In this document: one piece after another, positions 42,089-61,843 of the stretch | Layout of the letters: each line of letters begins with the position of its first letter | How positions within the stretch are numbered: the stretch's first letter is position 1 | Virus record (IMG/VR): IMGVR_UViG_3300030376_006980 | Location: 22,980 to 86,979 of that record | Source of the DNA: a virus | Lineage: Duplodnaviria > Caudoviricetes | Strand: one strand, 5' to 3' | Length of the DNA: 64,000 bases | Position numbers and translations under genes: made by a program | Notes under the pieces: model-generated | The model's input: the letters and a program-made list of their open reading frames with translations, nothing else | What the model was told of the DNA's origin: nothing | Databases searched by the model: none

Positions 42089-42100
42089 AAAACAAGATTT

Positions 42101-42140
42101 TATAGTTCAATTCCCAAGTAAATAGATTATATTTATACTA
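42101..42140 (+). promoter_or_regulatory. class I (early) promoter core
   Basis: TATAGTTCAATTCCCAAGTAAATAGATTATATTTATACTA. Confidence 0.75.
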
Positions 42141-42141
42141 T

Positions 42142-42491: not shown

Positions 42492-42499
42492 TTAAATAG

Positions 42500-42612: not shown

Positions 42613-42689
42613 GCTCTTAGATAGGTTAAAACCGAACAACGAGGCGTCAAATCTCACGCCTACAACCGAAAGGAGAGTCTAAGTGGAGT
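42613..42689 (+). ncRNA. multibranch structured element immediately 3' of the tRNA-like RNA
   Basis: Closing stem CTTAGAT/GTCTAAG encloses GGT-TAAA-ACC, AGGCGT/ACGCCT and CC-GAAA-GG hairpins. Confidence 0.4.
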
Positions 42690-42708
42690 ATTTTAAAAAT
42701 AAAATGTA

Positions 42709-43575: not shown

Positions 43576-43658
43576 TAACTTTCTAAAAATAACGTGAAAC
43601 TATAGTTCAAATCCCAATTAAATTGATTATATTTATATTATAATTAAAAAACGGAAAA
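43570..43658 (+). promoter_or_regulatory. class I early promoter element, full copy
   Basis: TGTTAATAACTTT at 43570, 40-nt core at 43601, ACGGAA at 43651 before the ATG. Confidence 0.8.
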
Positions 43659-44384
43659 ATGGAACATAAAATATTTGAAGTCGGTGGTTGTGTAAGGGAC
43701 GAAATCTTAGGAGTCCACACTAAAGACATCGACTTTACTTTTGTATTAGAAAATACTGATATGTCAGTAGAAGAAGGTTGGAACTCAATGTTATCTATCC
43801 TTGAATCTGAAGGATTTAAAATATTCTTAAAGACTAAAGATTGTTTTACTGTAAGAGCTATGTTTCCTAAAGGACATAAACATGAAGGTTTAGTTGCTGA
43901 TTTTGTTATGTCTAGGAAAGAAGTAGGAGTTATACCTGGAACCAGAAAACCTATATTAGAATTAGGTACTTTGGAGGATGACTTAATCAGAAGGGACTTT
44001 ACTGTAAACTCTTTATGTAAAGATGAAAATGGAAAAATCATAGATATGTTTGGTGGAGTAGAAGATTTGAAAAAAGGTGTTCTTAAAACTCCTTTACCTC
44101 CAATGAAAACTTTAATGGATGATCCATTAAGAATGATAAGAGGTTTAAGATTTTGTATAACTAAAGGTTTTACTATTGATGATGAATTATGGAACTGTAT
44201 GTTAGAACCTGGTTTGTTAATGAAATTACAAGATGTAGTTTCTCAAGAAAGAATCAGAGAAGAAGTTACTAAAATGTTCAAACATGATACTCTTAAGAGT
44301 TTAAACCTTTTAAGATTGGTACCAGGATTAATGGAAGTTATATTAAAAGATGGAATGTGGTTAATGCCAACAACTAAAAAGTAA
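43659..44384 (+). CDS. cca: class II tRNA nucleotidyltransferase (CCA-adding / poly(A) polymerase family), no HD domain
   Basis: VGGCVRDEILG...KDIDF, DDLIRRDFTVN, DDPLRMIRGLRF, SQERIREE. Confidence 0.85.
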   Translation: MEHKIFEVGGCVRDEILGVHTKDIDFTFVLENTDMSVEEGWNSMLSILESEGFKIFLKTKDCFTVRAMFPKGHKHEGLVADFVMSRKEVGVIPGTRKPILELGTLEDDLIRRDFTVNSLCKDENGKIIDMFGGVEDLKKGVLKTPLPPMKTLMDDPLRMIRGLRFCITKGFTIDDELWNCMLEPGLLMKLQDVVSQERIREEVTKMFKHDTLKSLNLLRLVPGLMEVILKDGMWLMPTTKK

Positions 44385-44388
44385 TAAG

Positions 44389-44592
44389 ATGAGATATACT
44401 GTAACATACACAATGTACATTGAGGCTGAAAATGATAAGCATGCAGTTTCAAAAGGTGAGATGATTGCCAAAAGAGAACAGGCAAAATATCCTGCACAAA
44501 GATGTGAAATGGAGAAACTTCATTGTACTCCATTTGCATCTTTGCAAACAAGAGAAGTAGATATTAATAAAATTAAATATGAAAAAGTATAA
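44389..44592 (+). CDS. hypothetical protein
   Basis: 67 aa ORF. Confidence 0.6.
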   Translation: MRYTVTYTMYIEAENDKHAVSKGEMIAKREQAKYPAQRCEMEKLHCTPFASLQTREVDINKIKYEKV

Positions 44593-44878
44593 AATAGAAT
44601 CACATATGGGTATTGCCTTTTCAACCTTTAATGGTCAAAAATATTTATTTCCAGGGTGGATCCCAGTTGAAGATCATATATCATTTGATGATGTTGAGGT
44701 AATTAATCCTTATGCAAATATTAAAGTTAATGAATATCAAATAACTGGTTCAAGAGGGGATAAATATACTGTAACTAATAGAAACGGACAATTTTCATGT
44801 AACTGTCCTGCTGGTAAATTTAGAGGAACTTGTAAACATGCCACACAAGTTAAAAAAGAACTAAGTTTAGTTGAATAA
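44579..44878 (+). CDS. SWIM zinc-finger protein
   Basis: FSCNCPAGKFRGTCKH (CxC...CxH). Confidence 0.8.
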   Translation: MKKYKIESHMGIAFSTFNGQKYLFPGWIPVEDHISFDDVEVINPYANIKVNEYQITGSRGDKYTVTNRNGQFSCNCPAGKFRGTCKHATQVKKELSLVE

Positions 44879-44901
44879 ATAAAGTAAAATAATATAAAAA
44901 C

Positions 44902-45246
44902 ATGGTAGGAACATACGGAATAGCAAAAATTGATGTTGCAACAGTAACTGATGCAAATGTTCAATTTGAAAGAGATACTGATCTAGGTATCAATCTGACT
45001 CAACAAAAGGCTCAAATAATTGTAGGAGCTACCCCTCCAGTTCTAACACAAGGTCCTATTAAAAAATATCCTACAGGAATCATAAATACTGGATCATCAG
45101 CTGGAGATATAGAAGTTAAAGATACTGTTGGAAATACTGTGGTGCTAGGAGCAATGCAACCTGGTGTTGTAAGAAAGTTTGCATTTAGCCAAGTACTAGG
45201 TGCAGGAACTACCCCAGCGGTGGGAGAAGTAACTATACTTTATTAA
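44902..45246 (+). CDS. small beta-rich protein, probably structural
   Basis: Preceded by GAATAAATAA; Gly/Thr/Val-rich. Confidence 0.6.
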   Translation: MVGTYGIAKIDVATVTDANVQFERDTDLGINLTQQKAQIIVGATPPVLTQGPIKKYPTGIINTGSSAGDIEVKDTVGNTVVLGAMQPGVVRKFAFSQVLGAGTTPAVGEVTILY

Positions 45247-45282
45247 AAATTTAAATAGTAAAAATAAAATAAATTTTAAGTA

Positions 45283-45471
45283 ATGGAAAAAGTAAAAGAA
45301 ATTTTTGGAAAAATAGTAAGTTGGGTTGACTCAAAAGGTTTCTCTGCATTACTATCATTAGGTCTAGGATTAGGTCTTTGGGCATTTGGTTATAAGATAT
45401 ATGCTGGAATTGCATTCGGTGTATTCTTAACTAGAAACTGGGATCTCTTCAGAGGATGGATGAAGAAGTAA
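45283..45471 (+). CDS. small membrane protein
   Basis: Gly/Leu-rich hydrophobic core. Confidence 0.65.
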   Translation: MEKVKEIFGKIVSWVDSKGFSALLSLGLGLGLWAFGYKIYAGIAFGVFLTRNWDLFRGWMKK

Positions 45472-45544
45472 CACAAAACACAATTTCATCTCAGTACATT
45501 TTTTGCTACTGGGATGATTATTGTATAATCAACAATAAGAAATT

Positions 45545-46219
45545 ATGAAATACATTAAAAGTTTAAACTTAGAAGAAAAGTTAAAATTAAAAAATCCTAA
45601 TAAGGATGGAGAAGCTGATATAGATTTTGTTGAAGTAAAGCCAGGTGATTTAAAAAAGATGGCTAAGAAATATAAATTAGATGCTGATGAGTATGAGCCA
45701 GGAATGGTAATGCTTAAAGGAAAGAAAAAAGATATTGTAAGTTTCTTAAAAGATCGTGACTATGATATGGCTGATCAAGATATTGAAGACATCTTTCCTG
45801 AATTATTAGAAAACAAAGAAGATTTTGAACCTCATATGATGTATGATCCTAAAACAGGAAAAGGTTATAAAGCTGATACATACGAAGATCATTTAAGAAT
45901 GGACAAAATGGGGTATGTTCATGAAAAACCAGAAAACATCGATGAAGCAAAGAAATTTAAGCCTGGTGATATGTGGTCAGATGATTTTGATTATGAAGGT
46001 ATGTTAAGGTATGGATTAAAGGTAAATGAAAAAACACCTATTAAGATGTTAAACAAATTATTTGATTCTGCAACAGATGTAAATTATCATACACCTTTTA
46101 GAAACTTAGGTATTGCAATTGATTGGATTGAAGATGGTGATAAGAAAGGAGCTAAAGATTACATAAAGAATTTTCATAATGACATCAAAGCTGAAATGAA
46201 AAGTCAAGGACTAAAGTAA
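45545..46219 (+). CDS. putative head internal polyprotein
   Basis: MKYIKSLNLEE; internal LLE and IDE junctions. Confidence 0.65.
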   Translation: MKYIKSLNLEEKLKLKNPNKDGEADIDFVEVKPGDLKKMAKKYKLDADEYEPGMVMLKGKKKDIVSFLKDRDYDMADQDIEDIFPELLENKEDFEPHMMYDPKTGKGYKADTYEDHLRMDKMGYVHEKPENIDEAKKFKPGDMWSDDFDYEGMLRYGLKVNEKTPIKMLNKLFDSATDVNYHTPFRNLGIAIDWIEDGDKKGAKDYIKNFHNDIKAEMKSQGLK

Positions 46220-46222
46220 AAT

Positions 46223-46654
46223 ATGAAGTTTATAAAAACATATAAAGGGTATCATATTAAAGAGGCTGCTATGGCCTGCCCTGCTGCAACACAAGATTTG
46301 AAACTGAATACTAAAAACAGAGACAAATCTATAAAAGCAGATTATATTCAATATGGTCCTCTTAATGTTCAAGAACCTGGTGATTATTGGAAAGATATTG
46401 CAAAATATTGGAATACTTCCGAAGCAGCTGCAAAGAAATCAAATTGTAGTAATTGTGTAGCATTTGATATCTCACCAAGAATGGATGAATGTATGCCTGG
46501 TGTAACTTCCGATGAGGATGGAAGATTAGGTTACTGTTGGATGCATCATTTTAAATGCCATTCAGCAAGAAGCTGTAGAACATGGGCAAAAGGTGGACCA
46601 ATAACAGAAGATAAAGTATCTTATGAGTGGCAAGAAAGAAACTCTAAAAAATAA
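46223..46654 (+). CDS. Cys/His-rich conserved phage protein with capsid-targeting-like leader
   Basis: MKFIKTYKGYHIKE; CPAATQDL, CSNCVAF, GYCWMHHFKCHSARSC. Confidence 0.75.
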   Translation: MKFIKTYKGYHIKEAAMACPAATQDLKLNTKNRDKSIKADYIQYGPLNVQEPGDYWKDIAKYWNTSEAAAKKSNCSNCVAFDISPRMDECMPGVTSDEDGRLGYCWMHHFKCHSARSCRTWAKGGPITEDKVSYEWQERNSKK

Positions 46655-46658
46655 AAAT

Positions 46659-47618
46659 ATGAAACACTTACTTACATTAGAAAAATTCTCTAAACAGTAT
46701 CAACAAAAGATTGATGTTAAAGATTTTAAGAAAATTAAAAAAGGTTCAAAGATCTTATATATGGGTGGCCAAGTTGAGGTAATGGATAATAATGGATATG
46801 TTCTTAAACTCAAAGGAGAAAACGGTAAAACCTTTACAGTAAATAAAAATCAATTTGATCATGGAGGAATGATTAAAGAAGGAGTATTAGATAACATTAC
46901 TTTAATGGCTGATGCATCAAAAAATTATGAAGACTTTAAGAAAAAGTTTAAGAAAGGTTTTCCAAAGATATTTAAATCTACTCCTGATTTTATGGATTGG
47001 TTATACGGAATGTATAAAGACATGGCACCAGACAAAGTAGAAGAAGTTAATGATGGAAAGAAAAAGAAAAAGAAAAAAGAATTCCATCCTGATATGATGT
47101 ATGAATCTAAAGGAAAAAAGGTTGTAAGTGATATTTATAAAGACGGCGGTCAGATTGATTATCTTTCTGATGCTGATGATGACACAAAAAAGATATGGAA
47201 AAAGGCAGGAATTAATCCAGAGGATGATGATATGATTATTCTTTATTCATATGTTAATAACTGGATTCCTACTAAAAAGATTTTAAATAAGTCAAGAATA
47301 AAGTATAAAGAATTAGAAGATCCTAATTCAGCAGGAGAATCTTTTATTGTATTTAATGTTAATGAACTATCATCTCAGCAAGACGGAACCAAAGCATCAG
47401 ACGGTAAACATAAACATGAAGATCATTTAGAAGAAGATCTTGAAGCAATGTGGAAAAAGATTTATGGTGAAGATTTTGTAAAACATTATCCAGCTGTTGC
47501 TAAGATTATCAGACAAAGAAAACTTAAAGATAAAAGAGAAATTGCTAGAATTTGGCAAGATACTTATGGTGAAGATTTTGAAAAAGAATATCCAGCATTA
47601 TACCAAAAACTATCATAA
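46659..47618 (+). CDS. putative head internal polyprotein (start corrected to ATG 46659)
   Basis: MKHLLTLEKF; IKE, VEE, MYE, VNE and LEE junctions; C-terminal W...YGEDF...YPA duplication. Confidence 0.65.
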   Translation: MKHLLTLEKFSKQYQQKIDVKDFKKIKKGSKILYMGGQVEVMDNNGYVLKLKGENGKTFTVNKNQFDHGGMIKEGVLDNITLMADASKNYEDFKKKFKKGFPKIFKSTPDFMDWLYGMYKDMAPDKVEEVNDGKKKKKKKEFHPDMMYESKGKKVVSDIYKDGGQIDYLSDADDDTKKIWKKAGINPEDDDMIILYSYVNNWIPTKKILNKSRIKYKELEDPNSAGESFIVFNVNELSSQQDGTKASDGKHKHEDHLEEDLEAMWKKIYGEDFVKHYPAVAKIIRQRKLKDKREIARIWQDTYGEDFEKEYPALYQKLS

Positions 47619-47944
47619 TGAAATATATTAAACCACTTAATGAAGGAAGACCTATGTTTCAGGATACTCCTAATGAATTTGCATATTTAGATTTTAAAAA
47701 ATGGGCATATAAAAATAGAGGCAAAATTAAAAGAGAACTTTCTAAAATTAATGATGGCACTACATTTTTCATAGCACTTAGAAGAATATGGATGGAATGG
47801 GCAAATAAAGAAGCAAAGGAATGGAGCTATTTACATTCTACTGCTGTGGCTAAAAAAGATTTTGGTAGAGCCTTGGCTACCATGCTAAAAAAGGATGACT
47901 TAATCATCAAAAAACAAGGAAATAAATTAACAGAAATCAAATGA
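47618..47944 (+). CDS. putative head internal protein
   Basis: MKYIKPLNE leader. Confidence 0.65.
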   Translation: MKYIKPLNEGRPMFQDTPNEFAYLDFKKWAYKNRGKIKRELSKINDGTTFFIALRRIWMEWANKEAKEWSYLHSTAVAKKDFGRALATMLKKDDLIIKKQGNKLTEIK

Positions 47945-49314
47945 AAAAACTAATTACACTCATATTTGCGGCTGCTCTATTGGTAGGATGCGGTATGAAT
48001 AAGAAAGGAGATGATTCATCTCCAATACTAGGAGATAATCCTAATTACCCAATGGCATGGTATTTAGATGTTAAAGAAGGATCCTTAGGTGGATGGAATA
48101 CTGGACCTAATGGTTCACCTGCTCAAGGCAGTCCTGCATTAGAAGCTGGGAAGGTTTATGGGTATGTTTCTACCGGAGATCAAAATTGGCTATCTATAAA
48201 TGGTTATAGTAAAGCTGGTGGTACAGAAGGTTATCTTTTTAATGAAACGATAGAGATAGATGGTGGTAAACCAGTTCCGCAAGCAAATTCTAAATGTAAA
48301 ACTTGTTTAACTTTTGAATATGTAAAGGATACTACAATAGCTCCAGCTACAACTCCTGTACATTATTATAAAGTATCTTTTATTAATAAAACTGCTCCAT
48401 ACACTGAAGGATTAATTGATTGGACAAGCGGACAAACAGGTAAAGTTCCTGGTTCTGTTTGGACTTCAGATTATAATTTTGAAGATAAAGGAAGATGGAC
48501 CTCAGATGGTACCTCTACTATACAAGGTACTCAAGAAACAGGTGATCCGACGTTTGGATATAATTACGGAAGTAGAGCTTACCCTGTAAATGTAGTAGAC
48601 GCTCAATATACTACTGATGACAATGCTTATGGTGTTGCTATGAATGGTGTGTGGCAAATAGATATTAAGATTGGTTCAAATGGTGGAACTTCATCACCTG
48701 ACAGCTTATTTTGTGAAACATTTTATTTAGCAGAAAGAGTTAATCAATATTGGGATAACCAATTTTATTTGGATGATAGCCCAAAAGGTGGAAACAATGA
48801 GTATGGTCAATATGGTAGAGAAATTGATATAATGGAAACTAAATGGAAACCTACAGGACCACAGGCAAACTTACCTAATGGTAATCCTTCAGACCCTGCA
48901 TCACATATGAGTTGGAACACTGATTTATCAGGAACTGATGGATATAACAAACAAGAATCAACATGGGATAAAGTATACACTGCCGGTTTTCCTAATGCAA
49001 CTACTTATGCAACATTTGGTGTTGCTATTTTAGATGAAGGTTTATATTTTTATGCATATGATGATCAAGGTAATTGGTTATATGCAGATGGACCTCATGC
49101 AGAAAAAAATGATTCTTATAAACAAACAGGACCTTTTGTACCTTATATTGGTACTTGGACTAAACAAGACTTAGGAACAAAAGGAGCATATAAAAAAGGT
49201 TTGCCAGGAGGTTTTAGTACTTCTTATAAAAACTTTGTTTATAAAACAGTAGCAGAAATGAATGGTAAAAATCCATTAGATAATAAAGATGCTTACGGGC
49301 CAGGTTTAAAATAA
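47941..49314 (+). CDS. lipoprotein with GH16-type catalytic motif
   Basis: Lipobox LLVGC; REIDIMET (ExDxxE); Gly/Trp/Tyr-rich beta content. Confidence 0.6.
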   Translation: MKKLITLIFAAALLVGCGMNKKGDDSSPILGDNPNYPMAWYLDVKEGSLGGWNTGPNGSPAQGSPALEAGKVYGYVSTGDQNWLSINGYSKAGGTEGYLFNETIEIDGGKPVPQANSKCKTCLTFEYVKDTTIAPATTPVHYYKVSFINKTAPYTEGLIDWTSGQTGKVPGSVWTSDYNFEDKGRWTSDGTSTIQGTQETGDPTFGYNYGSRAYPVNVVDAQYTTDDNAYGVAMNGVWQIDIKIGSNGGTSSPDSLFCETFYLAERVNQYWDNQFYLDDSPKGGNNEYGQYGREIDIMETKWKPTGPQANLPNGNPSDPASHMSWNTDLSGTDGYNKQESTWDKVYTAGFPNATTYATFGVAILDEGLYFYAYDDQGNWLYADGPHAEKNDSYKQTGPFVPYIGTWTKQDLGTKGAYKKGLPGGFSTSYKNFVYKTVAEMNGKNPLDNKDAYGPGLK

Positions 49315-49323
49315 ATATTAATA

Positions 49324-49893
49324 ATGAGTAAGATACATTCATATAACGAATTTAGTAATCAAGAATTGATCAAAGAAACCTATGACATCTTAGAAGGTGA
49401 CGTAAGTATGATGGATCTTGATGAAATGTTAAATGAAGGTATCTTTTCATTTATTAAAGGAATATTTGTAAACCCAGGAAAGAAAAGAGCATTAAGAAAA
49501 TTAGGTGATGAACTTTTTAAAGTTAAGTTGGCTATTCAGAAAGAAGAAATTGAAGAAAATAATATTGATAGATTAGAGGCAGAATTAAAATCTAAAGATC
49601 CTAATTATAAAGCATCAGATCGTATACAAATGGCTCGTGATGCAGATTCAGCTAAACTAAAAGCATTAAAAGGCAAAGAAGAAATCTTTATTGAAAGAAT
49701 GGATGCTATTGGTCAAGAAAATAGTACTTTACAAAAATATGTAAATAAGATAAAACTAGAAGTTAGGATGAAAGCTAATGATGCAACTATTAAAATAGCT
49801 GATGACGAAACAAAAAGGCTCTTAAGTAAAATTAAAGAGAAAGATGCTAAACAAATTAAAAAATTGGATAAGGAATTGGCTAAAGCAGCCTAA
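49324..49893 (+). CDS. coiled-coil protein with capsid-targeting-like leader
   Basis: MSKIHSYNEF...LIKE...MLNE. Confidence 0.65.
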   Translation: MSKIHSYNEFSNQELIKETYDILEGDVSMMDLDEMLNEGIFSFIKGIFVNPGKKRALRKLGDELFKVKLAIQKEEIEENNIDRLEAELKSKDPNYKASDRIQMARDADSAKLKALKGKEEIFIERMDAIGQENSTLQKYVNKIKLEVRMKANDATIKIADDETKRLLSKIKEKDAKQIKKLDKELAKAA

Positions 49894-49939: not shown

Positions 49940-49941
49940 AG

Positions 49942-49967
49942 AAAAGCTGGCTTATGCCGGCTTTTTT
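49942..49967 (+). terminator. rho-independent terminator
   Basis: AAAAGCTGGC-TTAT-GCCGGCTTTT followed by TT. Confidence 0.9.
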
Positions 49968-50049
49968 GTTTACACGAAGTTAACATTAAATTTACAATTA
50001 ATTAATATGTAAAGATGAAACTTTAGGTATTTTTCTCTATAAATAATAT

Positions 50050-50130
50050 ATGGAAACTAAAACTAAACTCGACATTACACCAGCAATTTATATCTTAATT
50101 ATGATTGTAGTTTTTGCACTAGGAATCTAA
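50050..50130 (+). CDS. 26-aa single-TM peptide (not in ORF track)
   Basis: METKTKLDITPAIYILIMIVVFALGI; follows AAAC-N15-CTATAAAT. Confidence 0.5.
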   Translation: METKTKLDITPAIYILIMIVVFALGI

Positions 50131-50195
50131 TATATAATTCACAGTTCTTTCAGCTCATAACGTTGAGCTCAAACTCCAAAATAATTTATTACACA

Positions 50196-50816
50196 ATGAA
50201 GAAATTCTTATCAGCCTTTTATGGCCTTTTTCTAGTTACAGGCATATTTGCACAGCAGTGCGATTTAGAAATGCTTAATATGGATTGGGATGACCAAACT
50301 ATAACATTAACTTTAACTGATAATGTTTGTTCCAATTCATCAACACCTTCGTGGGTACCTTATCCTGATTCCGTATATGCCGTGCAATTAGGATTAAGTT
50401 ATGGTGGTACTACTTGTATCATTCCATCTAATTCTACTAATTTTTATCCTCCTCTAGGATTAAATGATACTATCACATATTCATTCTCTGATTGGACTGA
50501 TCCTTTCAGTTGTTTCGATAATGCATTTACTTATTACCAAGAAACTTGTATGGCTACTGTTTCTGTTGTAGGTCCTAATAATTCTATTAACTTAGATATG
50601 AATAATGGAAACAACTATATAGGATTTAATCCTGTGTGGGATAACTGTTATGATGTAGTTAATGTTACTGAATTAGTAAATGTTAACAATGAAGTGATAG
50701 GTGTATTTGATCTTCTAGGTAGATATATTCAAAAAGATATAATTGGATTAGAACCTGGAGAATTATATTTAATCAAATATAATGATGGCACCATAACAAA
50801 ATTGCTTTTTAACTAA
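50196..50816 (+). CDS. secreted protein with T9SS-like C-terminal domain (start corrected to ATG 50196)
   Basis: Signal peptide ending IFAQQ; C-terminal VFDLLGR...LYLIKYNDGTITK. Confidence 0.7.
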   Translation: MKKFLSAFYGLFLVTGIFAQQCDLEMLNMDWDDQTITLTLTDNVCSNSSTPSWVPYPDSVYAVQLGLSYGGTTCIIPSNSTNFYPPLGLNDTITYSFSDWTDPFSCFDNAFTYYQETCMATVSVVGPNNSINLDMNNGNNYIGFNPVWDNCYDVVNVTELVNVNNEVIGVFDLLGRYIQKDIIGLEPGELYLIKYNDGTITKLLFN

Positions 50817-50864
50817 TCTCCACTATATTATACATCTTGAAGTCCTTTTTAAGATATATAATAC

Positions 50865-51938
50865 ATGAGATACATTAAATTACTTATTCTATTTTTCATA
50901 TTTAGTTTTGATGCAGTAGGACAATCACCACTATGTCCATCAACCTCAACCAATTTTGGTTACGAGCGTGTAAATTCAATAACTATAAATGGACAAAGCT
51001 ATACAGTAAATACTGGTTGGAGTGGTCCTGGTTATGTGGATCATACAAGCACACCGGTACCAACAATAACAGCTAATGATACAATTCAGTTGGATTATCA
51101 GATTCAAACAACTGGAAGTTATAATCAATTCTTTAAGTTATGGATTGATTTTAATGGGAATGGTGATTTAACTGATGCCGGTGAATTAGTACACTCTTCT
51201 TCATCGGTTGTGAATGGTGTACAAAATTTTACGAATACATTTATAGTACCGGACTCTGTTTACAATGGAGAGGTTTACATGAGATTTATTATGGTGTATT
51301 CATCATCTCCTACTTTATGTGGAAATTATTCTTATGGAAATACCGTTGACTTTAAAACTGATATTGTTGGAGCGGCGGATTCTATTTCAGCTGATGGTTA
51401 TGTAAAAGGTGCAGAAGAACAAGGTTTAGCTGGTGTACCTGTCAAATTATTAATACAACCTAAAGGTCAAACTGGATTTAATTACACCGAAGCAGATTCT
51501 ACATTAACCGATTCAATTGGATATTACCAATTTGACACAAACATAAACTATAATGATTATGATTATACAATAAACATTTATCCAGATTTAGATCTTCCAG
51601 AAACCACAGACATTGTTTGGTTTACGGATAGGATTTTAACAGGACCTGTTAGTTCTAAAGATTATTGGAGGATGGATGTTAACAACTCTGGGGAATTCTC
51701 AGTGTCTGATATTTTCTTAATGCATCAGATGAGACAAGGTAACATTACAAATTATCCTGGATCTGGACAGACACTATGGAACACAAACTATTTTCAACAG
51801 CCTTATATTTGGGATGCTGTTAAAATAGATACCGATGATAAAACAATTATCCCAGGATACGGACAATGGTCGCTCTTTGATTTACTCAACGAAAACCAAA
51901 CAACCTTTTATGTCATAGGGGCGGGACATAAAAACTAA
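50865..51938 (+). CDS. secreted GEVED-domain protein with dockerin-like segment
   Basis: Signal peptide; YERVNSITING...WIDFNGNGDLTDAGE...MRF...YGNTVDF (GEVED-type); DVNNSGEFSVSD (dockerin-like EF hand). Confidence 0.75.
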   Translation: MRYIKLLILFFIFSFDAVGQSPLCPSTSTNFGYERVNSITINGQSYTVNTGWSGPGYVDHTSTPVPTITANDTIQLDYQIQTTGSYNQFFKLWIDFNGNGDLTDAGELVHSSSSVVNGVQNFTNTFIVPDSVYNGEVYMRFIMVYSSSPTLCGNYSYGNTVDFKTDIVGAADSISADGYVKGAEEQGLAGVPVKLLIQPKGQTGFNYTEADSTLTDSIGYYQFDTNINYNDYDYTINIYPDLDLPETTDIVWFTDRILTGPVSSKDYWRMDVNNSGEFSVSDIFLMHQMRQGNITNYPGSGQTLWNTNYFQQPYIWDAVKIDTDDKTIIPGYGQWSLFDLLNENQTTFYVIGAGHKN

Positions 51939-51954
51939 AAAAAATTAAAAACAA

Positions 51955-53049
51955 ATGAAAACGAAAAACATTCTTTTAACCTTACTTTTGGTAATGGGCT
52001 CGGTATTTGCTTTTGGGCAAACAACAGCTCCTGATGCTACCAAGCCATGGGTTATTTTAGATTCAACGTATTCTTTAGAAGCTGTAACATCGAGCACTAA
52101 CACTAGTGTAGATGTTTATTACGACAATACCTCAGGTAATGTGGTAAAGGGTATTCAATTCTCATTTAGTTATGATAATACTGTTTTTGATTCTCCAACT
52201 GTTACATATAATTCTACATCAGGACCTGTAGGTTATATGGCTACAGATGTAGATACAACAAACGGAATTGTTAAAGTTTTATGGGTTTATGATGGAGCAT
52301 CAACAACTTTTGATATTATTGCAGGTAATATGTTCTCGGTTGACTTACCTTTTCAATCAGGCTATGCTAATGGTACAGTTGCAGGTTTAGATTTTACAAC
52401 TGACTTAACTGCATATTATGCAAAGTCGGATGGAACCGATGGTACTTTAGGTACACAAGATAATGGAGGTAACTTTGTTGAACCTACATTTGATTATACA
52501 GCTACTATTTTAAACAGTGCTACTAATCCAGCAGAATCTATTCCAGTTATTTTACAAAAATCATCGGATGGTTCAACTTGGAGTGATGTGGCAACAGTAA
52601 CAACTGCTGTTGATGGAACAGCTGTATTCTCAGAATTTATTGATCAAGGTTATTGGCAAATCAGATTAAAGATTGAAAGTGGTTTAGATGCTAGTACAGC
52701 ATTATCCACAGCAGATGCTAATATGATTGCACAAATTGCTGCAGGTGTTCAATCTGCATCAGGTGTTCAGTTCTATTCAGCAAACCCAAATCAAGCTAAC
52801 GGGATAACTGCTTCTGATTCATACTTAGTATTTGCTAGGTTAGCTCAAGGTAATTCAAATTATCCTGCTAACCCAGATGTATTGTTCTTTACTGAAGCAC
52901 AGTACATGACTATTGATGCTGCTAACACAGATCAATCAGGTACAATACCAGGTCAGTCAGAATTTTTATCTCCTCAAATAAATGGTACAACGTCAGGTAA
53001 CTTTTACCTAATTATTTTAGGTGATGCCAACAGTACTGGTTTGAATTAA
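51955..53049 (+). CDS. secreted cohesin-like + dockerin-like protein
   Basis: Signal peptide ending AFGQ; VKGIQFSFSYDNTVF (cohesin-like); LSTADA and NPNQANGITASDSYL (dockerin-like); closing GDANSTG. Confidence 0.7.
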   Translation: MKTKNILLTLLLVMGSVFAFGQTTAPDATKPWVILDSTYSLEAVTSSTNTSVDVYYDNTSGNVVKGIQFSFSYDNTVFDSPTVTYNSTSGPVGYMATDVDTTNGIVKVLWVYDGASTTFDIIAGNMFSVDLPFQSGYANGTVAGLDFTTDLTAYYAKSDGTDGTLGTQDNGGNFVEPTFDYTATILNSATNPAESIPVILQKSSDGSTWSDVATVTTAVDGTAVFSEFIDQGYWQIRLKIESGLDASTALSTADANMIAQIAAGVQSASGVQFYSANPNQANGITASDSYLVFARLAQGNSNYPANPDVLFFTEAQYMTIDAANTDQSGTIPGQSEFLSPQINGTTSGNFYLIILGDANSTGLN

Positions 53050-53050
53050 T

Positions 53051-53788
53051 ATGAGGACTATACTATTAACATTACTGTTATTACTAACAGCAAGCGCTCA
53101 GTCTCAGGTCGTATTTAATGTACCTGAGATTGAAGTGCCCGTTAGTGAATTCATTAACTTACCTGTAGAAATTGAAACAGCAGGTGAGGATGTTGGTAGT
53201 TTAGAGTTTGCTTTAAATTATGATACTAATTTTTTAGAATTTGTATCAATAAGTGTTACAGCTAAAGCACAAGAATGGTTAACCTATACTATGGACTGGG
53301 AAGGTGAAACTGTTAGGTGGGGTGGTTATGATGCATCTTTTGGTACCTATACCATAAGTAATACTACCGAGTTATTCACTTTAAGATTTAGAGTCATTAG
53401 CCAAGATTGGGATACTATACCTATTACGATTGGTAGAAAAACAGCAGGAACAGAATTAGGTTGGGATATTGAAGTTGAAAATACTGATGGGTATGTTAAT
53501 AAAAGAATGGCACCATTTGAAACCAAACCTATGGATGGAATTTATGGATTGGTTTATCCAGTTCCAACACAAGGTTTGTTAACATTTGATTTAACAGTAC
53601 CTGACAACGGTGATTATGAAATTAGAGTAATCAATTATAATGGAGTGATATACAAAAGCTTTAAGAAAAAATTCTTTAGTGGATATGTTTCATTCCAAAC
53701 AGATTTATCTGATTTAGCACAAGGAATTTATTTATTACAAATAACAAATGGTGTGTACGTAAAAACATTCAAAATAATAAAGAAATAA
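53051..53788 (+). CDS. cohesin-like domain protein with T9SS type A sorting domain
   Basis: INLPVEI...VGSLEFALNYDTNFLEF; VYPVPT...DLSDLAQGIYLLQI...KTFKIIK. Confidence 0.8.
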   Translation: MRTILLTLLLLLTASAQSQVVFNVPEIEVPVSEFINLPVEIETAGEDVGSLEFALNYDTNFLEFVSISVTAKAQEWLTYTMDWEGETVRWGGYDASFGTYTISNTTELFTLRFRVISQDWDTIPITIGRKTAGTELGWDIEVENTDGYVNKRMAPFETKPMDGIYGLVYPVPTQGLLTFDLTVPDNGDYEIRVINYNGVIYKSFKKKFFSGYVSFQTDLSDLAQGIYLLQITNGVYVKTFKIIKK

Positions 53789-53789
53789 G

Positions 53790-54050
53790 ATGAAAGATAA
53801 AAAGGGAGGGTTCTTTTCAGAAATTAAGAATCAAATAGTAACTGGGGTAGGTTTAGTTATAACAGCAGCTTTTGGTTTATTGATAGCCAATATGCAATCT
53901 ATATTTAAACCTAAAGAAGAAAAAGTAAATCCACCTGTCATGGAGCAAAGAATCAATACCCCAAATAATGTAAAGGATACTTTGGTAATAACCAAAACAA
54001 TAGTTATACCTCCTAAGGAAGATAAAAAAGAAGAAGAGATATCATGGTAA
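53790..54050 (+). CDS. small membrane-anchored protein
   Basis: Single TM helix followed by a Pro/Thr-rich tail. Confidence 0.65.
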   Translation: MKDKKGGFFSEIKNQIVTGVGLVITAAFGLLIANMQSIFKPKEEKVNPPVMEQRINTPNNVKDTLVITKTIVIPPKEDKKEEEISW

Positions 54051-54748
54051 GAATATTTTTAATTGCATTGCTTTTATTTAATCTTACAGCTAATGCTCAA
54101 ATAGGAAAAACTGAAACTGAAGACTATAAGGCTGGCTTTGAACAAAAATCAGACATAGATGAGGTATCAGATTATATGTTGGATTATCAATTACCTATTC
54201 AAGTTTTAAATATTGGCTTTACTCCAGAATTATATGAGTTCTATCCAGAGTTAAGAGAAAACCGAGTAGGACTTGGTGTAAGTAACATTACTTTATCTTA
54301 TTTGGAATGGACTGATAGATTTTTATTTACTGAAGATAAAGAAGAAATCAAACAAAGGATGGTAAAACAACATAAAGCCGCTGCTAAAGGTATATCTTCA
54401 AATGATATTAAAGTTGTAGGTAATGTTGTATTGGCAGAATATTTTGTTTATGTAGAAATATATGATTATTCTGTATCAGAGGAAGAAGAAGTTACAACTA
54501 ATGGTGTAAAGACAGTTCTTAAAACTATTATTGGTATGCAAGTAAGATTTGTTAATGCTGAAACAGGAACAATCTTTACAGGAAGCGGAAGCGGTGAAGC
54601 AGTTACAATTAAAAGAAGTCAGATTGGTGAAGATAATGAAGTTAAGTTTAATAAATCAACAATCGGTATTGCAACCAAGAAGGCTTTGGAAACTGCATCA
54701 GCTCGTATCATAAAAAGAATGATTAAGCGTGGAATATTTGAAGAATAA
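54044..54748 (+). CDS. CsgG/HfaB-like secreted protein
   Basis: Signal peptide ending ANAQ; RF...E...AEYFVYVEI...VRFVNAETG...GSGEA...STIGIATKKALETA pattern. Confidence 0.7.
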   Translation: MVRIFLIALLLFNLTANAQIGKTETEDYKAGFEQKSDIDEVSDYMLDYQLPIQVLNIGFTPELYEFYPELRENRVGLGVSNITLSYLEWTDRFLFTEDKEEIKQRMVKQHKAAAKGISSNDIKVVGNVVLAEYFVYVEIYDYSVSEEEEVTTNGVKTVLKTIIGMQVRFVNAETGTIFTGSGSGEAVTIKRSQIGEDNEVKFNKSTIGIATKKALETASARIIKRMIKRGIFEE

Positions 54749-56021
54749 AATTTTAATTCTATTATTGTGTTTACCGTTTGCTACTTTTGGCCAATGGTCT
54801 TATACATTTACAGATCCTTGTACTTTAAATCAGCAAACAATCCAAATGGGTTCTAGTAATTCTATTGCTTTAAATTATTTTGGAAATGTTCAAACATTTA
54901 CACAGACCGATTTTACAAACGGTACATTTGATTCATGGATGAATTTAGTTACACAAGCTAATAGTTCCTCACCTTGTGAAAGCGTAACACAAGTGATTAT
55001 GAATACTTCAAATACTATTGCTATTCAGAATACTATCCTAGTTGTTACAAATGTTATGTCAATATTAGGTGGAGAGATGTTACCTAAAGCAATATCAGCA
55101 TCAGCAGTTCCAGTTGCAGAAGCTATAGATAATGCAGCAGGCGAAGAAGAAGAAAAGAAAAAGAAAGGTTCATCTAAAAATCAAAATAGTAATACCAGTT
55201 CTGAAAATCAAAACAGCACATCAAGCAATACAAATGAAAGTAATAGTGGAGAAGGTGGTAGTGGAGAAGGATCTGCTTCTGGTTCTGGTAACGTAGATGG
55301 AACTGAAGAAGAGGAAAATGAAGGTGGTGTAAACTTATCATTAGCTAATTCCATTTCAAATGTATTGGATGGTGGTGATGAAGATAATAAAAATAGAGGA
55401 TCATTAATTGCATCAGGTGATATTATAGTTATTGACAATAGAGATAATTCAAATGGCCAACAGTTAAAGGTAGTAGGTTCTATTACACAAGCAAATGCAG
55501 AACAAAATAGAATTCAAGGTGCTCTTTTTACATACACATCTGTTACTCATGATTTTAGTTTAACATTTTACAAATCTTGGATTAATCCTAACAAAACTTT
55601 TAACTTAGTAGGAGCCAATACAACGATGACTGATTTTGACCAAAATCATTTTAATACTACAACAGCTTTGGAATCATGGAAGTGGGGTAAAGTTACAGGT
55701 ATGGCTGGAGCTAACTTTACATTTGGTAAATTAGGAAAAAGAAATTTGCAAAACTTATCAGCTGTGGCTGGTGCTCATAGAAATTTTAGAATCAGTCCAA
55801 GGGTTACTACCTCAACATTAATACTAGGTGTTTATTCACCGTTCACTCAATTTTATGAAGGTAAGTGGTGGGATCCTGGTGTTTTGATAGTTCCATTTAG
55901 TTCATGGGATATTAAGATAACAAAAACTTTTAAATATAATATCAGTTTTACTGGTGTTTGGCATTCTAACGGTAATGCTTTAAACTATCAAATTTTAACT
56001 GGTGGCAAAATAAGATTTTAA
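54729..56021 (+). CDS. secreted protein with low-complexity linker and C-terminal outer-membrane beta-barrel
   Basis: Signal peptide; Ser/Asn/Gly/Glu linker; amphipathic strands ending ILTGGKIRF. Confidence 0.7.
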   Translation: MEYLKNKILILLLCLPFATFGQWSYTFTDPCTLNQQTIQMGSSNSIALNYFGNVQTFTQTDFTNGTFDSWMNLVTQANSSSPCESVTQVIMNTSNTIAIQNTILVVTNVMSILGGEMLPKAISASAVPVAEAIDNAAGEEEEKKKKGSSKNQNSNTSSENQNSTSSNTNESNSGEGGSGEGSASGSGNVDGTEEEENEGGVNLSLANSISNVLDGGDEDNKNRGSLIASGDIIVIDNRDNSNGQQLKVVGSITQANAEQNRIQGALFTYTSVTHDFSLTFYKSWINPNKTFNLVGANTTMTDFDQNHFNTTTALESWKWGKVTGMAGANFTFGKLGKRNLQNLSAVAGAHRNFRISPRVTTSTLILGVYSPFTQFYEGKWWDPGVLIVPFSSWDIKITKTFKYNISFTGVWHSNGNALNYQILTGGKIRF

Positions 56022-56022
56022 T

Positions 56023-56460
56023 ATGAAGAATTTAATTATAGCATTAATGTTTTTACCTATGCTTTCTTTTTCACAGGAATGTTATACTGTGGCTAGAGTA
56101 GGTACCCAAATAGAGATGGAAGAAATGAGTAAGAACCGTATTGTTTTCGGAATTAAGCAAATGGTTGAAGATATTATTTCAGACAAATATGAATTATGTA
56201 TGGATGGCAAACCTGTAATAATAGTTGTGAAATCAATCGAAGCTCCAACAACTGGAATTGAATTAGGCCCATGGACTAAAGTTAGTAAAAAAACTATCGT
56301 GAAGTTACTAATCTATATGGATGGCAAAGAAATTGCAGTAGAAGGAAAAGCTAAATCAACAGTTGAGGCAACTTTCATAGATCTTAATAATGATAAATTA
56401 GCTTTCAGTAAAACTGCATTTTCATCAGCAGTCAAAAAAGCAATTGAAAAAGCACTTTAA
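56023..56460 (+). CDS. short CsgG-like paralog
   Basis: Signal peptide; C-terminal GKAKST...FSKTAFSSAVKKAIEKAL parallels the C-terminus of 54044. Confidence 0.55.
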   Translation: MKNLIIALMFLPMLSFSQECYTVARVGTQIEMEEMSKNRIVFGIKQMVEDIISDKYELCMDGKPVIIVVKSIEAPTTGIELGPWTKVSKKTIVKLLIYMDGKEIAVEGKAKSTVEATFIDLNNDKLAFSKTAFSSAVKKAIEKAL

Positions 56461-56646
56461 GAGATATCTCACTTCTAGTGGGAGATAATCTAATTACATA
56501 TATACATACATAAGATATAACTAATGATGCTAGCACATCTCTAGTATCCTTGTATGTTGCAAAAATACACATGCTGACCATACACTATACTTATTTTTAG
56601 ATAAAACAAAATACATTTCTTGCATATAATAATAAATTGATTTATT

Positions 56647-57102
56647 ATGGACCAAACAAAAGAAATAGTAGGTTTTACCGCAGGAAATTTTGATTTAATC
56701 CACCCTGGGTATATTTACACATTTGAGACTGCTAAACAGCACTGTGATCGTTTTGTTATATTTTTGCATTCCAACCCAGCAGAAGAAAGAGATCAAAAAT
56801 ATAAACCTGTAGTTCCTTTGTATGAAAGATATAAAACTCTTATGGCATTAGAAGCTGTAGATGAAGTATATACCTATAACACTGAAGAAGACTTACTTAA
56901 GCTTATTGAGTTTGTAAAACCTGATATTAGAATTTTAGGAGATGATTATATAGGAGAAAGATTTACTGGAGATCATTTAGGTATTAAAGTTATATACACC
57001 ACAAGAAGTCACGGTTGGTCTATGACTAGGATTAAGAATATGATAACTAGGCAAACTGTTAAACAAAATCCTGATGTATTAAAAAAAGATAAAGATGATT
57101 AA
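56647..57102 (+). CDS. cytidylyltransferase (TagD / glycerol-3-phosphate CT-like)
   Basis: AGNFDLIHPGY (HxGH-like), RSHGWS. Confidence 0.85.
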   Translation: MDQTKEIVGFTAGNFDLIHPGYIYTFETAKQHCDRFVIFLHSNPAEERDQKYKPVVPLYERYKTLMALEAVDEVYTYNTEEDLLKLIEFVKPDIRILGDDYIGERFTGDHLGIKVIYTTRSHGWSMTRIKNMITRQTVKQNPDVLKKDKDD

Positions 57103-57364
57103 GACACAGTTGAAATTAATTAGTTGCGGAATTTTATTTTTAATTTTTGGAGTTGCATGCTTAAGTGCAGTTGAAGAAAAAGAACCTATACCTATAGAGG
57201 AAAGAGATTCAGATATACCTTGTCAAAATTTAGATGTATTAGATTCTGTTGATTATATTTTACATTGGGAAATTATTAATGATACTTTACATATCTATAC
57301 AAAGGACGATGAGATAAGGGATGAACGTGAAAGATGGGAATACATTAAAAGTTTAGAGGAATGA
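57095..57364 (+). CDS. hypothetical membrane or lipoprotein
   Basis: N-terminal hydrophobic stretch ending in Cys. Confidence 0.55.
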   Translation: MIKTQLKLISCGILFLIFGVACLSAVEEKEPIPIEERDSDIPCQNLDVLDSVDYILHWEIINDTLHIYTKDDEIRDERERWEYIKSLEE

Positions 57365-60347: not shown

Positions 60348-60360
60348 AAATTGTTAAAAT

Positions 60361-60450
60361 TGTTAATAACTTTCTAAAATAACTGCCAAAGTATAGTACA
60401 AAACCCAACAAATAGTATTATATTTAAATATAATTTAAAAAACGGAAAAA
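60361..60450 (+). promoter_or_regulatory. class I early promoter element, full copy
   Basis: TGTTAATAACTTT at 60361 (preceded by two TGTTAAAA half-copies), core at 60392, ACGGAA at 60442. Confidence 0.8.
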
Positions 60451-60774
60451 ATGACAAATAACTTTAAACCTCTATCAGAAACTTACTTTGCAAATGAACC
60501 TTTATGTGAAGTTAGAGTTTCTCAACTATTAAATGGAATGAAAACGACAGGTTCAGCTGTAGATGCAGCTAATATGTTTCAAGAATCTTTTTACATCAAT
60601 GAAGCTCCACTCTTATTTGACTTCTGTAAGTGGATAGATAATGAAATAGGAGGATGTGGTCCGATTAACATACAAGATCTTTGGTATGCATTTAATCATC
60701 CACAAGAACAATTTTCTAAAAATGTTGCAAAGTATTGGAAAGAAGAAATGGAAAAAATTAATTCATATTGTTAA
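60451..60774 (+). CDS. hypothetical protein (early)
   Basis: 107 aa ORF directly after a class I element. Confidence 0.7.
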   Translation: MTNNFKPLSETYFANEPLCEVRVSQLLNGMKTTGSAVDAANMFQESFYINEAPLLFDFCKWIDNEIGGCGPINIQDLWYAFNHPQEQFSKNVAKYWKEEMEKINSYC

Positions 60775-60873
60775 TAACTTTTTGAAAAAAACAAGAATTT
60801 ATAGTTCAATTCCCAATAAATTGTGTTATATTTATACTATAATTAATTAATACTAAACCTAAAAACGGAAAAC
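60769..60873 (+). promoter_or_regulatory. class I early promoter element, full copy
   Basis: TGTTAATAACTTT at 60769, core at 60800, ACGGAA at 60865. Confidence 0.8.
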
Positions 60874-61740
60874 ATGGCAAAAGTACAAAAAATCAAATCA
60901 AGGCTTACTCAAATCTCAAATGTAAAATATGAAAAGGGATTGTTTGAAGCTCACAAGACAAATACTCCACTGGACGGATTGTTCAGTATTGATGGAGGTA
61001 TTCCTAAAGCAACTAACTGGATGGTAGTTGGAGATCCTGGTGTTGGTAAATCTACTGTAACACTGGATATTATCGCAAATGCAAAAGCAAGCGGTTCAAA
61101 AGTATTGTTCATTTCAGCTGAGATGAACCAGGTGGATCTTTACCTTTATGTTAAAAGGTATCCTAAGTTCGGAGAATTGGATATTTTCTTTCCACAAGAA
61201 ATTGCCGATGATGAAGATCCAAAAGCAGTACTAGAAGAAATCCTTAATGAAGGATATGATATTGTACTGACTGACTCATTTATTGAGTTGCAAGAAACTA
61301 TTAGAGAAGCTGGGAGAATGACCAGAAACAGTTCTGAAAAGTACCTCCTAGATTTAATGTACAAACATAACCTTGGAGATAACAAAGGAAAACACTTTAC
61401 TGCATTCCTTAATATCCAACAAGTTAACAAAGGTGGTACATTCGTCGGTTCTAACAAACTGAAGCATATGACAACTGGTATGATGGAGATTAGGTTCGTG
61501 GATGAAAGAGACCAAGAGGAAAGGTATGTAACCTTTAGTAAAAACCGTAGAGGTCATGTAGGAAAACAAATGTACTTTGATCTTTCTGCTAGTGGAGATG
61601 TAACATATGATACTGAAAGGTTCAAAAAATCTGAAAGCCTTAAGCAATTAAAGAAAGCTGAAAAAGAAAAGATTAAGAAATCAGGAATGCAATTCGATGC
61701 ACTCTTTGGATTAGAATCTAAAGAAGAATCGGATAAATAA
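60874..61740 (+). CDS. RadA/Sms-like RecA-family ATPase without Lon-like domain
   Basis: LDGLFSIDGGI, GDPGVGKST, LFISAEMN, LTDSF, GSNKLKHM, FSKNRRG. Confidence 0.8.
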   Translation: MAKVQKIKSRLTQISNVKYEKGLFEAHKTNTPLDGLFSIDGGIPKATNWMVVGDPGVGKSTVTLDIIANAKASGSKVLFISAEMNQVDLYLYVKRYPKFGELDIFFPQEIADDEDPKAVLEEILNEGYDIVLTDSFIELQETIREAGRMTRNSSEKYLLDLMYKHNLGDNKGKHFTAFLNIQQVNKGGTFVGSNKLKHMTTGMMEIRFVDERDQEERYVTFSKNRRGHVGKQMYFDLSASGDVTYDTERFKKSESLKQLKKAEKEKIKKSGMQFDALFGLESKEESDK

Positions 61741-61742
61741 AT

Positions 61743-61843
61743 TGTTAATAACTTTAGAAAAAAAACAAGAATTTATAGTTCAAAACTCAATTAAATAGAT
61801 TATATTTATACTATAATAATTAAAACAAACTAAAACGGAATTT
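61743..61843 (+). promoter_or_regulatory. class I early promoter element, full copy
   Basis: TGTTAATAACTTT at 61743, core at 61774, ACGGAA at 61835. Confidence 0.8.

Follow-up and report, generated by a model that had tools for sequence, protein, structure and literature searches.

The 64,000-nucleotide (nt) stretch of viral DNA considered here, called the window throughout (Duplodnaviria, Caudoviricetes; positions 22,980 to 86,979 of IMG/VR record IMGVR_UViG_3300030376_006980), carries at 50196-56460 a 6.3-kb block of eight tightly packed + strand open reading frames (ORFs) whose products, to judge by clear signals in their sequences, are sent to the envelope of the host by way of Sec and signal peptidase I. 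We give an even chance to the reading that this block is an old phage-borne gene set of large aquatic myoviruses of Flavobacteriia, remodelling the host envelope and providing it with a coat of phage-chosen lectin. A more specific form is put forward tentatively, as possible rather than probable: a phage-built cohesin-dockerin scaffold with a single anchor tagged for secretion by the type IX system (T9SS), tail-less partners travelling as a folded complex, a head swapped to match the glycan of the host or of neighbouring cells, and a CsgG-derived ring with a tethered barrel as base. These readings are drawn from curated domain matches, the concentration in the block of export signals with Gln after the cleavage site (Q-rule), a common C-terminal module, head swapping, a fixed gene order with unrelated flanks, gaps of 1 nt and overlaps between genes, absence from cellular genomes, CsgG and barrel folds, and the position of the block away from the capsid gene in the cultured Flavobacterium phage vB_FspM_immuto (hereafter immuto).

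The source is a marine T4-type phage of Flavobacteria. The window has a G+C content of about 30%, holds nearly all its genes on the + strand, and gives PHROGs matches to split topoisomerase II subunits, a ClpC/Lon-type protease, thymidylate synthase, glycosyltransferases and a DnaB-like ATPase; the split topoisomerase II, the protease, the thymidylate synthase and the single-strand gene layout identify its DNA as that of a large T4-type phage, which bears out the phage origin claimed for the block in an earlier reading of the bare sequence (hereafter the original prediction). For the eight block proteins, PHROGs returned nothing useful and no structural family was matched. The eight coupled genes, seven of them with signal peptides, were found as the original prediction had described them (Table 1). 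In 5' to 3' order, they are separated by gaps of 48, 16, 1 and 1 nt, then by overlaps of 7 and 20 nt (the latter 11 nt if 54729 starts at the possible alternative ATG 54738), and then by a gap of 1 nt. Genes and their products are named by the first position of the gene, and the letters A to G denote the slots of the conserved core.

Table 1. Features of the block and of its edges, with positions in the window
Feature	Position	Strand	Description
GC-rich hairpin + T run, upstream block edge	49941..49968	+	after gene 49324-49893; read in the sequence; not listed by consensus scan
Accessory exported Cys-rich protein	50196..50816	+	206 amino acids (aa) from ATG 50196; signal peptide ends AQQ; outside conserved core
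Cap protein, slot A	50865..51938	+	signal peptide, GEVED head, prealbumin-like beta-sandwich, C-terminal module with one dockerin-type calcium loop
Adaptor protein, slot B	51955..53049	+	signal peptide, cohesin-like N-domain, Ig/prealbumin-like sandwich, C-terminal module of 50865 type; ends ...LGDANSTGLN
Anchor protein, slot C	53051..53788	+	signal peptide ending SAQSQ; cohesin residues 22-127; type A T9SS sorting domain 168-245 of 245
Small single-pass inner-membrane protein, slot D	53790..54050	+	Pro/Lys/Glu-rich tail; stop overlaps 54044 start
CsgG-superfamily protein (predicted), slot E	54044..54748	+	signal peptidase I type signal ANA-Q; 215 residues; most conserved gene of the block
Outer-membrane protein, slot F	54729..56021	+	signal peptide, small disulfide-bonded N-domain, linker residues 111-223, 12-stranded barrel ending GGKIRF
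Small exported protein, slot G	56023..56460	+	two invariant Cys in family alignment
Terminator-like hairpin after last gene	56526..56548	+	consensus scan

Export signals and the anchor, adaptor and cap proteins

An N-terminal signal peptide is found in seven of the eight block proteins, 53790 having an uncleaved signal-anchor helix instead, and in all seven the predicted cleavage site is followed by Gln. This Q-rule is specific to Bacteroidetes signal peptidase I substrates (PMC5837995), and was earlier remarked on for Porphyromonas phages (PMC10367356). When 91 long ORFs of the window were scored with a crude predictor, a signal peptide followed by Gln was recorded for seven, six of them inside the block; once 54044 is added by eye, the block holds seven of the eight such ORFs in the window. 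The sole other one, 10626-11051 (+, 141 aa), has a sub-threshold OMP_b-brl match (E 0.0022) and may encode another phage-made outer-membrane protein. The Q-rule signal peptides, the type A T9SS tail of 53051 and the terminal Phe of the 54729 barrel are sequence features that mark the block proteins clearly as built for export in a Bacteroidota host.

The T9SS domain claimed for 53051 scores above the cut-offs of both models describing it (TIGR04183, 39.2 bits vs 23, E 5.1e-10; Por_Secre_tail, PF18962, 37 bits vs 27, E 4.4e-9), and so does its Cohesin domain (PF00963, 41.1 bits vs 24.1, E 2.6e-10), whose family also matches the Clostridium scaffoldin cohesins 2vn5 and 1g1k at E 0.0055 in a PDB profile search. 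As in T9SS type A substrates, a sorting domain at the extreme C-terminus is combined with an N-terminal Sec signal peptide, and export through the host T9SS is predicted from this sorting tail. The protein has 190 relatives, of which the full-length ones measure 243-247 aa.

In the cap protein 50865, the GEVED domain seen by the original prediction is borne out (PF20009, residues 90-164, 49 bits vs a cut-off of 24.4, E 1.1e-12), with SdrD_B and CarboxypepD_reg matches below threshold. This protein and the adaptor 51955 are homologous over approximately 190 C-terminal residues (27% identity and E 5e-5 over the last 100), a region consisting of a prealbumin-like sandwich and then a helix-loop-helix. 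The calcium loop of 50865 is DVNNSGEFSVSD, followed by a helix, and relatives conserve in their cap proteins a canonical loop of the form DxNxDGxxxxxD with its helix, the segment upstream of it being a helix only; DVNNSGEFSVSD, DVNNDGKFSVAD and DANGDNRLTVSD are examples of these dockerin/EF-hand-type loops. The nearest ESM Atlas clusters of 51955 are rich in Cohesin, Dockerin_1 and CarboxypepD_reg, although, being language-model neighbours, they serve as a lead only. A PDB sequence match of the 51955 family to VDAC (E 0.1) was judged to be due to chance.

The domain logic of anchor, adaptor and cap appears, by sequence and by analogy, to match that of a cohesin-dockerin scaffold. The host T9SS would export the cohesin anchor 53051 and fix it to the cell surface, the adaptor 51955 would dock on this anchor, and the lectin cap 50865 would dock on the adaptor, in tiers that would mirror those of the cellulosome (anchoring scaffoldin, adaptor scaffoldin, dockerin-tagged subunit). 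How would the tail-less 50865 and 51955 leave the cell? They could be exported with the anchor as a folded complex, or by way of the CsgG-like and barrel proteins; the products of slots D, E, F and G would form a separate envelope-spanning apparatus holding or serving the assembly, made up of a stalk in the inner membrane, the protein derived from CsgG, its small partner and the tethered barrel. The infected cell, and later its debris, would end up coated with a phage-chosen lectin. Such a lectin might bind the surface glycan of the host itself, masking the receptor and thereby keeping both other phages and its own phage's progeny from adsorbing, or it might bind neighbouring cells or particles and thus keep new hosts close ('sibling capture').

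Several findings weigh against an assembly of this kind. The Cohesin match of 51955 is sub-threshold (15 bits; best relative E 3.6e-4), and its N-domain aligns with the 53051 cohesin at E 0.005 and a probability of 7% in hhalign, so that the cohesin read in it by the original prediction is better described as cohesin-like, below the level of family membership. As for the dockerins read in both proteins, the module contains a single calcium loop, degenerate from consensus in 51955, and the Dockerin_1 (PF00404) hidden Markov model (HMM) gives no match at E up to 1 in 50865 or 51955, nor at E up to 0.01 in six cap proteins of relatives. With membership of the dockerin family judged by a match to the model and by two tandem calcium-binding loop-helix segments, 'dockerin-like' appears to be a fair description of the motif, short of family membership. 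Moreover, neither 50865 nor 51955 has a recognisable T9SS tail that would take it across the outer membrane; a type B T9SS tail was considered for their common C-terminal module and dropped, having no HMM support at E up to 1.

Gene 50196, with which the block opens, stands apart from this set. The original prediction had read a T9SS-like C-terminal domain in it as well, which did not hold: no Pfam or NCBIfam domain is matched at E up to 1, no T9SS tail is recognised, and its C-terminal part gives nothing against the 53051 family by BLASTP and a probability of 0.5% by hhalign. Among the relatives, it is confined to L001 and L002, the two closest, and is therefore regarded as an accessory gene.

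The membrane-side proteins

The 54044 protein shows 57-98% identity over the 46 loci having it. Its AlphaFold2 (AF2) model (predicted local distance difference test, pLDDT, 60; predicted template modelling score, pTM, 0.59) gives ten top Foldseek matches that are all chains of CsgG 4uv2 (E 5e-6 to 4e-5, template modelling scores 0.41-0.46), followed at a lower level by FlgT, PelC, LptE, GNA1162 and HpaA, which have one small lipoprotein fold in common; the best BFVD match is a phage 'CsgG'. The Pfam CsgG model (PF03783) has no match on 54044, nor, at E up to 10, any in the genome of immuto, and a PDB sequence search with the family gave no matches. A profile of the 54044 family retrieved 279 representatives from 1.84 billion, and among 30 distant relatives PF03783 is present in 16 (best E 1.9e-17) and LpoB in nine. 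When these distant relatives are included, the broader profile aligns end to end with Escherichia coli CsgG in hhalign (probability 91%, E 1e-6), vs a probability of 2% for the narrow profile, and some relatives carry the Joint Genome Institute (JGI) name 'curli ... secretion channel CsgG'. Fold and homology through distant relatives thus place 54044, by model and sequence, in the CsgG superfamily, as its label in the original prediction implied.

The ring in the outer membrane that the same prediction attached to this label was not supported, and the observations involved also count against a ring-and-barrel base for the scaffold. The lipobox Cys is absent from 54044, which has LTANAQ-IGK instead; a lipobox occurs in three of 15 aligned relatives (VSC, VGC and TAC in L032, L035 and L046), and distant cellular relatives have a GC consensus. 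In CsgG, two membrane-spanning hairpins (TM1 and TM2) build a 36-stranded pore. With the hairpins of E. coli CsgG placed where the 4uv3 paper presumably puts them, hhalign makes the TM2 region of 54044 about 11 residues shorter than that of CsgG, and polar, and the TM1 region about six residues shorter, with EEEE in it. Lacking a lipobox and, by this alignment, most of the second membrane hairpin, 54044 is doubtful as a curli-type pore and may never enter the outer membrane. The AF2 models of 54044 and 54729 are also modest in confidence, with pLDDT of 60 and 52, respectively. Taken together, 54044 is probably a CsgG-derived, ring-forming protein of the periplasm or of the inner face of the outer membrane, and not a proven pore.

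A true curli-like (type VIII) channel, exporting as unfolded substrates the tail-less 50865 and 51955 or an amyloid-forming subunit, would fit the end-to-end homology of 54044 to CsgG and the JGI names of its relatives, and the small protein 56023 could then act as CsgE or CsgF. It is nevertheless quite improbable, as it has to contend with the changes in both hairpin regions and the missing lipobox of the window copy, with the failure of Pfam CsgG to match directly, and with the composition of the block, in whose eight proteins the curlin repeat (CsgA/B-type), CsgE and CsgF families were all without a match at E up to 1. As for 56023, it is possibly a short relative of 54044 in sequence, hhalign against the 54044 family covering its last 60 residues only (E 0.0016, probability 16%), and the paralogy claimed for the two proteins survives in this weakened form. 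Its ESM Atlas neighbours are viral, one cluster having Lipoprotein_16 in 23% of its members. A PDB match of its family to a stretch of ribosomal protein S1 looks like chance.

The barrel with a flexible linker described for 54729 was confirmed by modelling, with 12 long strands at residues 224-428 in the AF2 model and Phe as the final residue. Foldseek and VIA return outer-membrane barrels only (VIA Z 12-15; CymA 15.1, OmpG 14.1, NalP 13.9, PgaA 13.4, PelB 13.3). The N-domain has two invariant cysteines, and the hypervariable linker, rich in Ser, Gly, Asn, Thr and Glu, measures 65-210 aa in relatives; it appears free to vary, because whole proteins range from 343 to 506 aa while their barrels are 82-100% identical to that of the window. 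Autotransporters (NalP, EspP, AIDA-I, Hbp, EstA, AaaA) are among the fold matches, but porins and Omp85 barrels match equally well, and no autotransporter HMM matches 54729. In a type Va autotransporter, which joins an N-terminal passenger to a C-terminal 12-stranded barrel, a helix should come directly before the barrel; in 54729 it is indistinct, and a conserved LANSxSNxxDGG segment is found 10-30 residues upstream. A partner barrel of PorP/SprF type was considered and had no HMM support at E up to 1.

Could the ring and the barrel together form a gate for a polysaccharide? A CsgG/PelC-like ring of 54044, perhaps with 56023, would lie under the 54729 barrel as PelC does under PelB, and the lectin scaffold would hold a phage-specified glycan coat. 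The 54044 model matches PelC (5t0z, E 2e-4; 9h80_A, E 1.3e-3), the barrel has among its matches PelB of that same entry (9h80_M, Z 13.3) as well as PgaA (Z 13.4), and two sugar-nucleotide genes, one cytidylyltransferase-like and the other for an epimerase, are directly downstream of the block in the window. Fold matches of barrels, however, are no guide to function, those to CymA, OmpG and NalP being equal or higher; PelB and PgaA are wider than this 12-stranded barrel, other phages do not conserve the sugar genes beside the block, and no polymerase or flippase is linked to it. Such a gate is therefore an improbable explanation, albeit one with structural matches on both of its parts.

In slot D, every locus reaching that position has a gene for a protein of 83-109 aa that begins with a hydrophobic helix. 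The C-terminal ...EE(I)SW and the following start MV(R/K), common to the window and to the divergent locus L025, point to translational coupling of 53790 and 54044. The same arrangement recalls a lysis device, of spanin type or another envelope disruptor, in which 53790 would act with the periplasmic proteins and the outer-membrane protein: the gene of a small membrane protein of type II overlaps that of an exported protein, which has a lipobox in L032, L035 and L046, and in immuto an endolysin lies about 6 kb downstream of the block. This is very improbable, given that 54044 is a folded CsgG-type protein of 215 residues, unlike the short outer-membrane spanins, that lysis has no use for lectins, cohesins or a T9SS tail, and that the block in the window is not beside any recognisable lysis gene.

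Distribution, head swapping and neighbourhood

Conservation was assessed by tblastn of the window genes against related loci. The anchor gene 53051 is carried by 50 viral contigs, some of 150-168 kb, and 51955 is present in 52 of 52 loci at 54-90% identity. In every locus extending far enough (approximately 50 phage loci), the genes follow the order 51955-53051-53790-54044-54729-56023 (B-C-D-E-F-G), which is kept down to 43-57% identity, with median identities of 44-61%, and the flanking genes match in the two nearest relatives only. In seven loci (L033, L039, L040, L041, L044, L049 and L052), two extra genes are inserted between slots D and E (e.g. L044:11051-12274), one for a membrane protein of 87-89 aa and the other for a protein of 309-327 aa with no Pfam match.

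This insertion bears on an alternative in which two unrelated modules happen to be adjacent, A, B and C being T9SS-linked secreted glycan binders and D, E, F and G an apparatus of their own in the periplasm and outer membrane, for example one blocking the entry of superinfecting DNA or altering envelope permeability. The block can be split at D/E, its two parts are linked by adjacency alone (which also tells against a single scaffold with its base), E is far more conserved than A to C, and E, F and G resemble the stand-alone CsgG-type operon of pelagimyophages, which lacks cohesins (PMC7029224). We nevertheless regard this alternative as unlikely, with the B-to-G order found at every locus reaching that far, stop-start junctions that overlap or are 1 nt apart, and no locus seen with the ABC or the DEFG half alone except at contig ends.

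In slot A, the head is exchanged between phages. In the gene before 51955, the order of parts is constant (signal peptide, head, common sandwich and common C-terminal module) and only the head varies: GEVED in the window, Lectin_C in immuto and L035 (which has two slot A genes), Lectin_C with a concanavalin-like LamG domain (Laminin_G_3) in L045, PA14 in L043, and no known family in other relatives. Lectin_C, LamG and PA14 are carbohydrate-binding folds. Variable heads also recall the variation of receptor-binding proteins, and phage particles often bear Ig-like and lectin domains, so that the products could be taken for virion or virion-decorating proteins, such as lectin-type adhesins on the capsid or tail. 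This is hardly credible for a set of proteins of which seven have a cleavable signal peptide, one a T9SS tail and one a membrane barrel, all incompatible with cytoplasmic assembly, and the block of immuto is surrounded by ribonucleotide reductase and nuclease genes, outside the structural module and 110 kb from the capsid gene. Among the outcomes that the original prediction had named as fatal to it, virion components is thereby one that the data speak against.

Another was an operon common in host chromosomes and newly captured by the phage. Among 185,579 prokaryotic species genomes, the block was matched on two contigs only, and both of the metagenome-assembled genomes (MAGs) concerned hold a T4 Gp23 capsid gene, in one case on the same 248-kb contig as the block; relatives of 54044 were found in none of 300 further genomes of the MAGs' family. 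No cellular copy having turned up, the block appears from sequence comparison to be old in phages, with no recent capture. The ClpC-like gene that follows the block on the 248-kb phage contig, binned in a Flavobacteriaceae MAG (G002:C1:19965-21917, - strand), is 49% identical to the window ClpC, vs 64-88% for the block proteins, a contrast that could mean that phages exchange the block, or that constraint on it is unusually strong.

Among cultured phages, the block is present only in immuto (gp013-gp019, annotated as 'lectin C-type', 'cohesin domain-containing' and hypothetical). Immuto lacks the topoisomerase II and ClpC of the window, and the block is thus common to rather different phages. 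In public metagenomes, the 54044-like protein forms more than 5,400 clusters at 90% identity, and the window's own version was found in marine samples from 13 studies dated 2014-2025.

Some loci depart from the pattern or extend it. Directly after the block, L007:5382-6599 (with matching genes in L015 and L019) encodes an exported protein of about 400 aa ending in ...GINYTFK, with no Pfam match, which looks from its sequence like a second outer-membrane barrel and is followed by two small signal-peptide ORFs. In L046 (7951-8361), the cohesin/T9SS gene is open for 136 codons only, whereas tblastn matches residues 6-245, probably as a result of a frameshift, a stop or an assembly error.

Around the block in the window, the upstream hairpin at 49941-49968 is likely to be a terminator. 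A sigma-70 promoter scan performed at chance level. The T4-type late promoter TATAAATA has two + strand copies in the window, both intergenic, one at 18470, ahead of the glycan gene cluster that begins at 18851, and one at 50038, ahead of the block, and 13 copies on both strands, 11 of them on the - strand, vs about 18 in shuffles; as relatives do not conserve it upstream of the block, no timing is inferred from it. Just past the copy at 50038, between the upstream hairpin and 50196, a 26-codon ORF (50051-50131, +) would encode the very hydrophobic peptide METKTKLDITPAIYILIMIVVFALGI. An 88-nt intergenic element in four copies that are 75-84% alike (43564-43651, 60355-60442, 60763-60850 and 61737-61824) has a TATA-rich end just before gene starts and looks like a class of phage promoter; no copy stands directly before the block. 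Genes for proteins with lipoprotein-type N-termini flank the block on the + strand, at 47941-49314 (LLVGC) and 57095-57364 (GVAC); an assignment of the first to glycoside hydrolase family 16 had no Pfam support. Further upstream, the region 29000-49000 has one nucleotide-level match to deposited phages, at 36985-37386 inside the ClpC-like gene (75% over 400 nt to LR745206.1, a 635-kb uncultured phage).

Salt-marsh metatranscriptome contigs, 85-97% alike, cover most of 51764-55969, one of them running from 54044 into 54729; they provide weak evidence of expression because DNA carry-over is possible. RNA runs from the same samples as the DNA matches gave short or spurious pieces on the block only, which is no proof of silence.

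Relation to known systems

The original prediction knew of no characterised phage system like this one. No paper was found on a block combining cohesin, lectin, CsgG-like and barrel genes, and in this respect the statement stands; for parts of the block, there are precedents (PMC7468147, PMC7029224). The block is very common, and conserved across phages of differing core gene content. If infected Flavobacteria do display a lectin, this would change the sticking, aggregation and re-infection of these abundant degraders of algal matter during blooms, through a viral device that masks receptors on cells and debris or keeps fresh hosts nearby where the water is dilute. Cohesin-dockerin assembly would then have its first viral use, as would the anchoring of a scaffold by T9SS. 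The cultured pair of Flavobacterium sp. LMO8 and phage immuto makes the block directly testable.

Like the cohesin-dockerin systems, cellulosomal or not, the block comprises a cell-anchored cohesin, a second protein that is cohesin-like and has a dockerin-type module, and a third joining a functional head to that module. It differs from them in being phage-encoded, in its anchor (a T9SS sorting tail, not SLH or sortase), in the one calcium loop of its module vs two, with no match to the Dockerin HMM, and in its cargo, which is of lectin type and not an enzyme; binding within the block is predicted only.

Phage-encoded T9SS cargo has been reported once, and called 'unique', in the cryoconite phage 'Cryophage' (PMC7468147). 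There too, a signal peptide is combined with a C-terminal Por_Secre_tail, and the set includes a PA14 protein and variable cargo genes. However, Cryophage carries separate enzymes, whereas the block has one tailed protein with a cohesin as passenger, within a fixed multi-gene set that includes membrane proteins.

A 'curli operon' with CsgG/CsgF and of unknown function is found in pelagimyophages and in an OM43 phage (PMC7029224, PMC9004378), marine phage contigs were listed with csgG as one of their most abundant 'virulence genes' (PMC7003362), and a role in aggregation ('sibling capture') has been proposed for the pelagimyophage operon (PMC7029224). These phages are likewise T4-type marine myoviruses, with a CsgG-superfamily gene in a small operon together with unknown partners and no curlin subunits. 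Their hosts are Alpha- and Gammaproteobacteria without T9SS, their operon has no cohesin, lectin or barrel-with-tether genes, and 54044, with its shortened TM2 region, differs from their CsgG in being too diverged for the Pfam CsgG model.

The pairing of a lipoprotein of LptE/PelC/CsgG fold with an outer-membrane barrel also recalls PelBC and LptDE, the 54044 model matching PelC and LptE and the 54729 barrel matching PelB. This likeness is one of fold level only: the barrel of 54729 has 12 strands, the 54044 of the window is not lipidated, and the block has no known polymer substrate.

Finally, T5 Llp is a single small lipoprotein that binds the protein receptor from the periplasmic side (PMC9586334). 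Both it and the block consist of phage-made exported proteins acting, in the case of the block by prediction, on the surface of the infected cell, with an adsorption block as a plausible common purpose, but where T5 relies on one lipoprotein, the block would bring seven proteins, lectin-type heads and the secretion systems of the host to the task.

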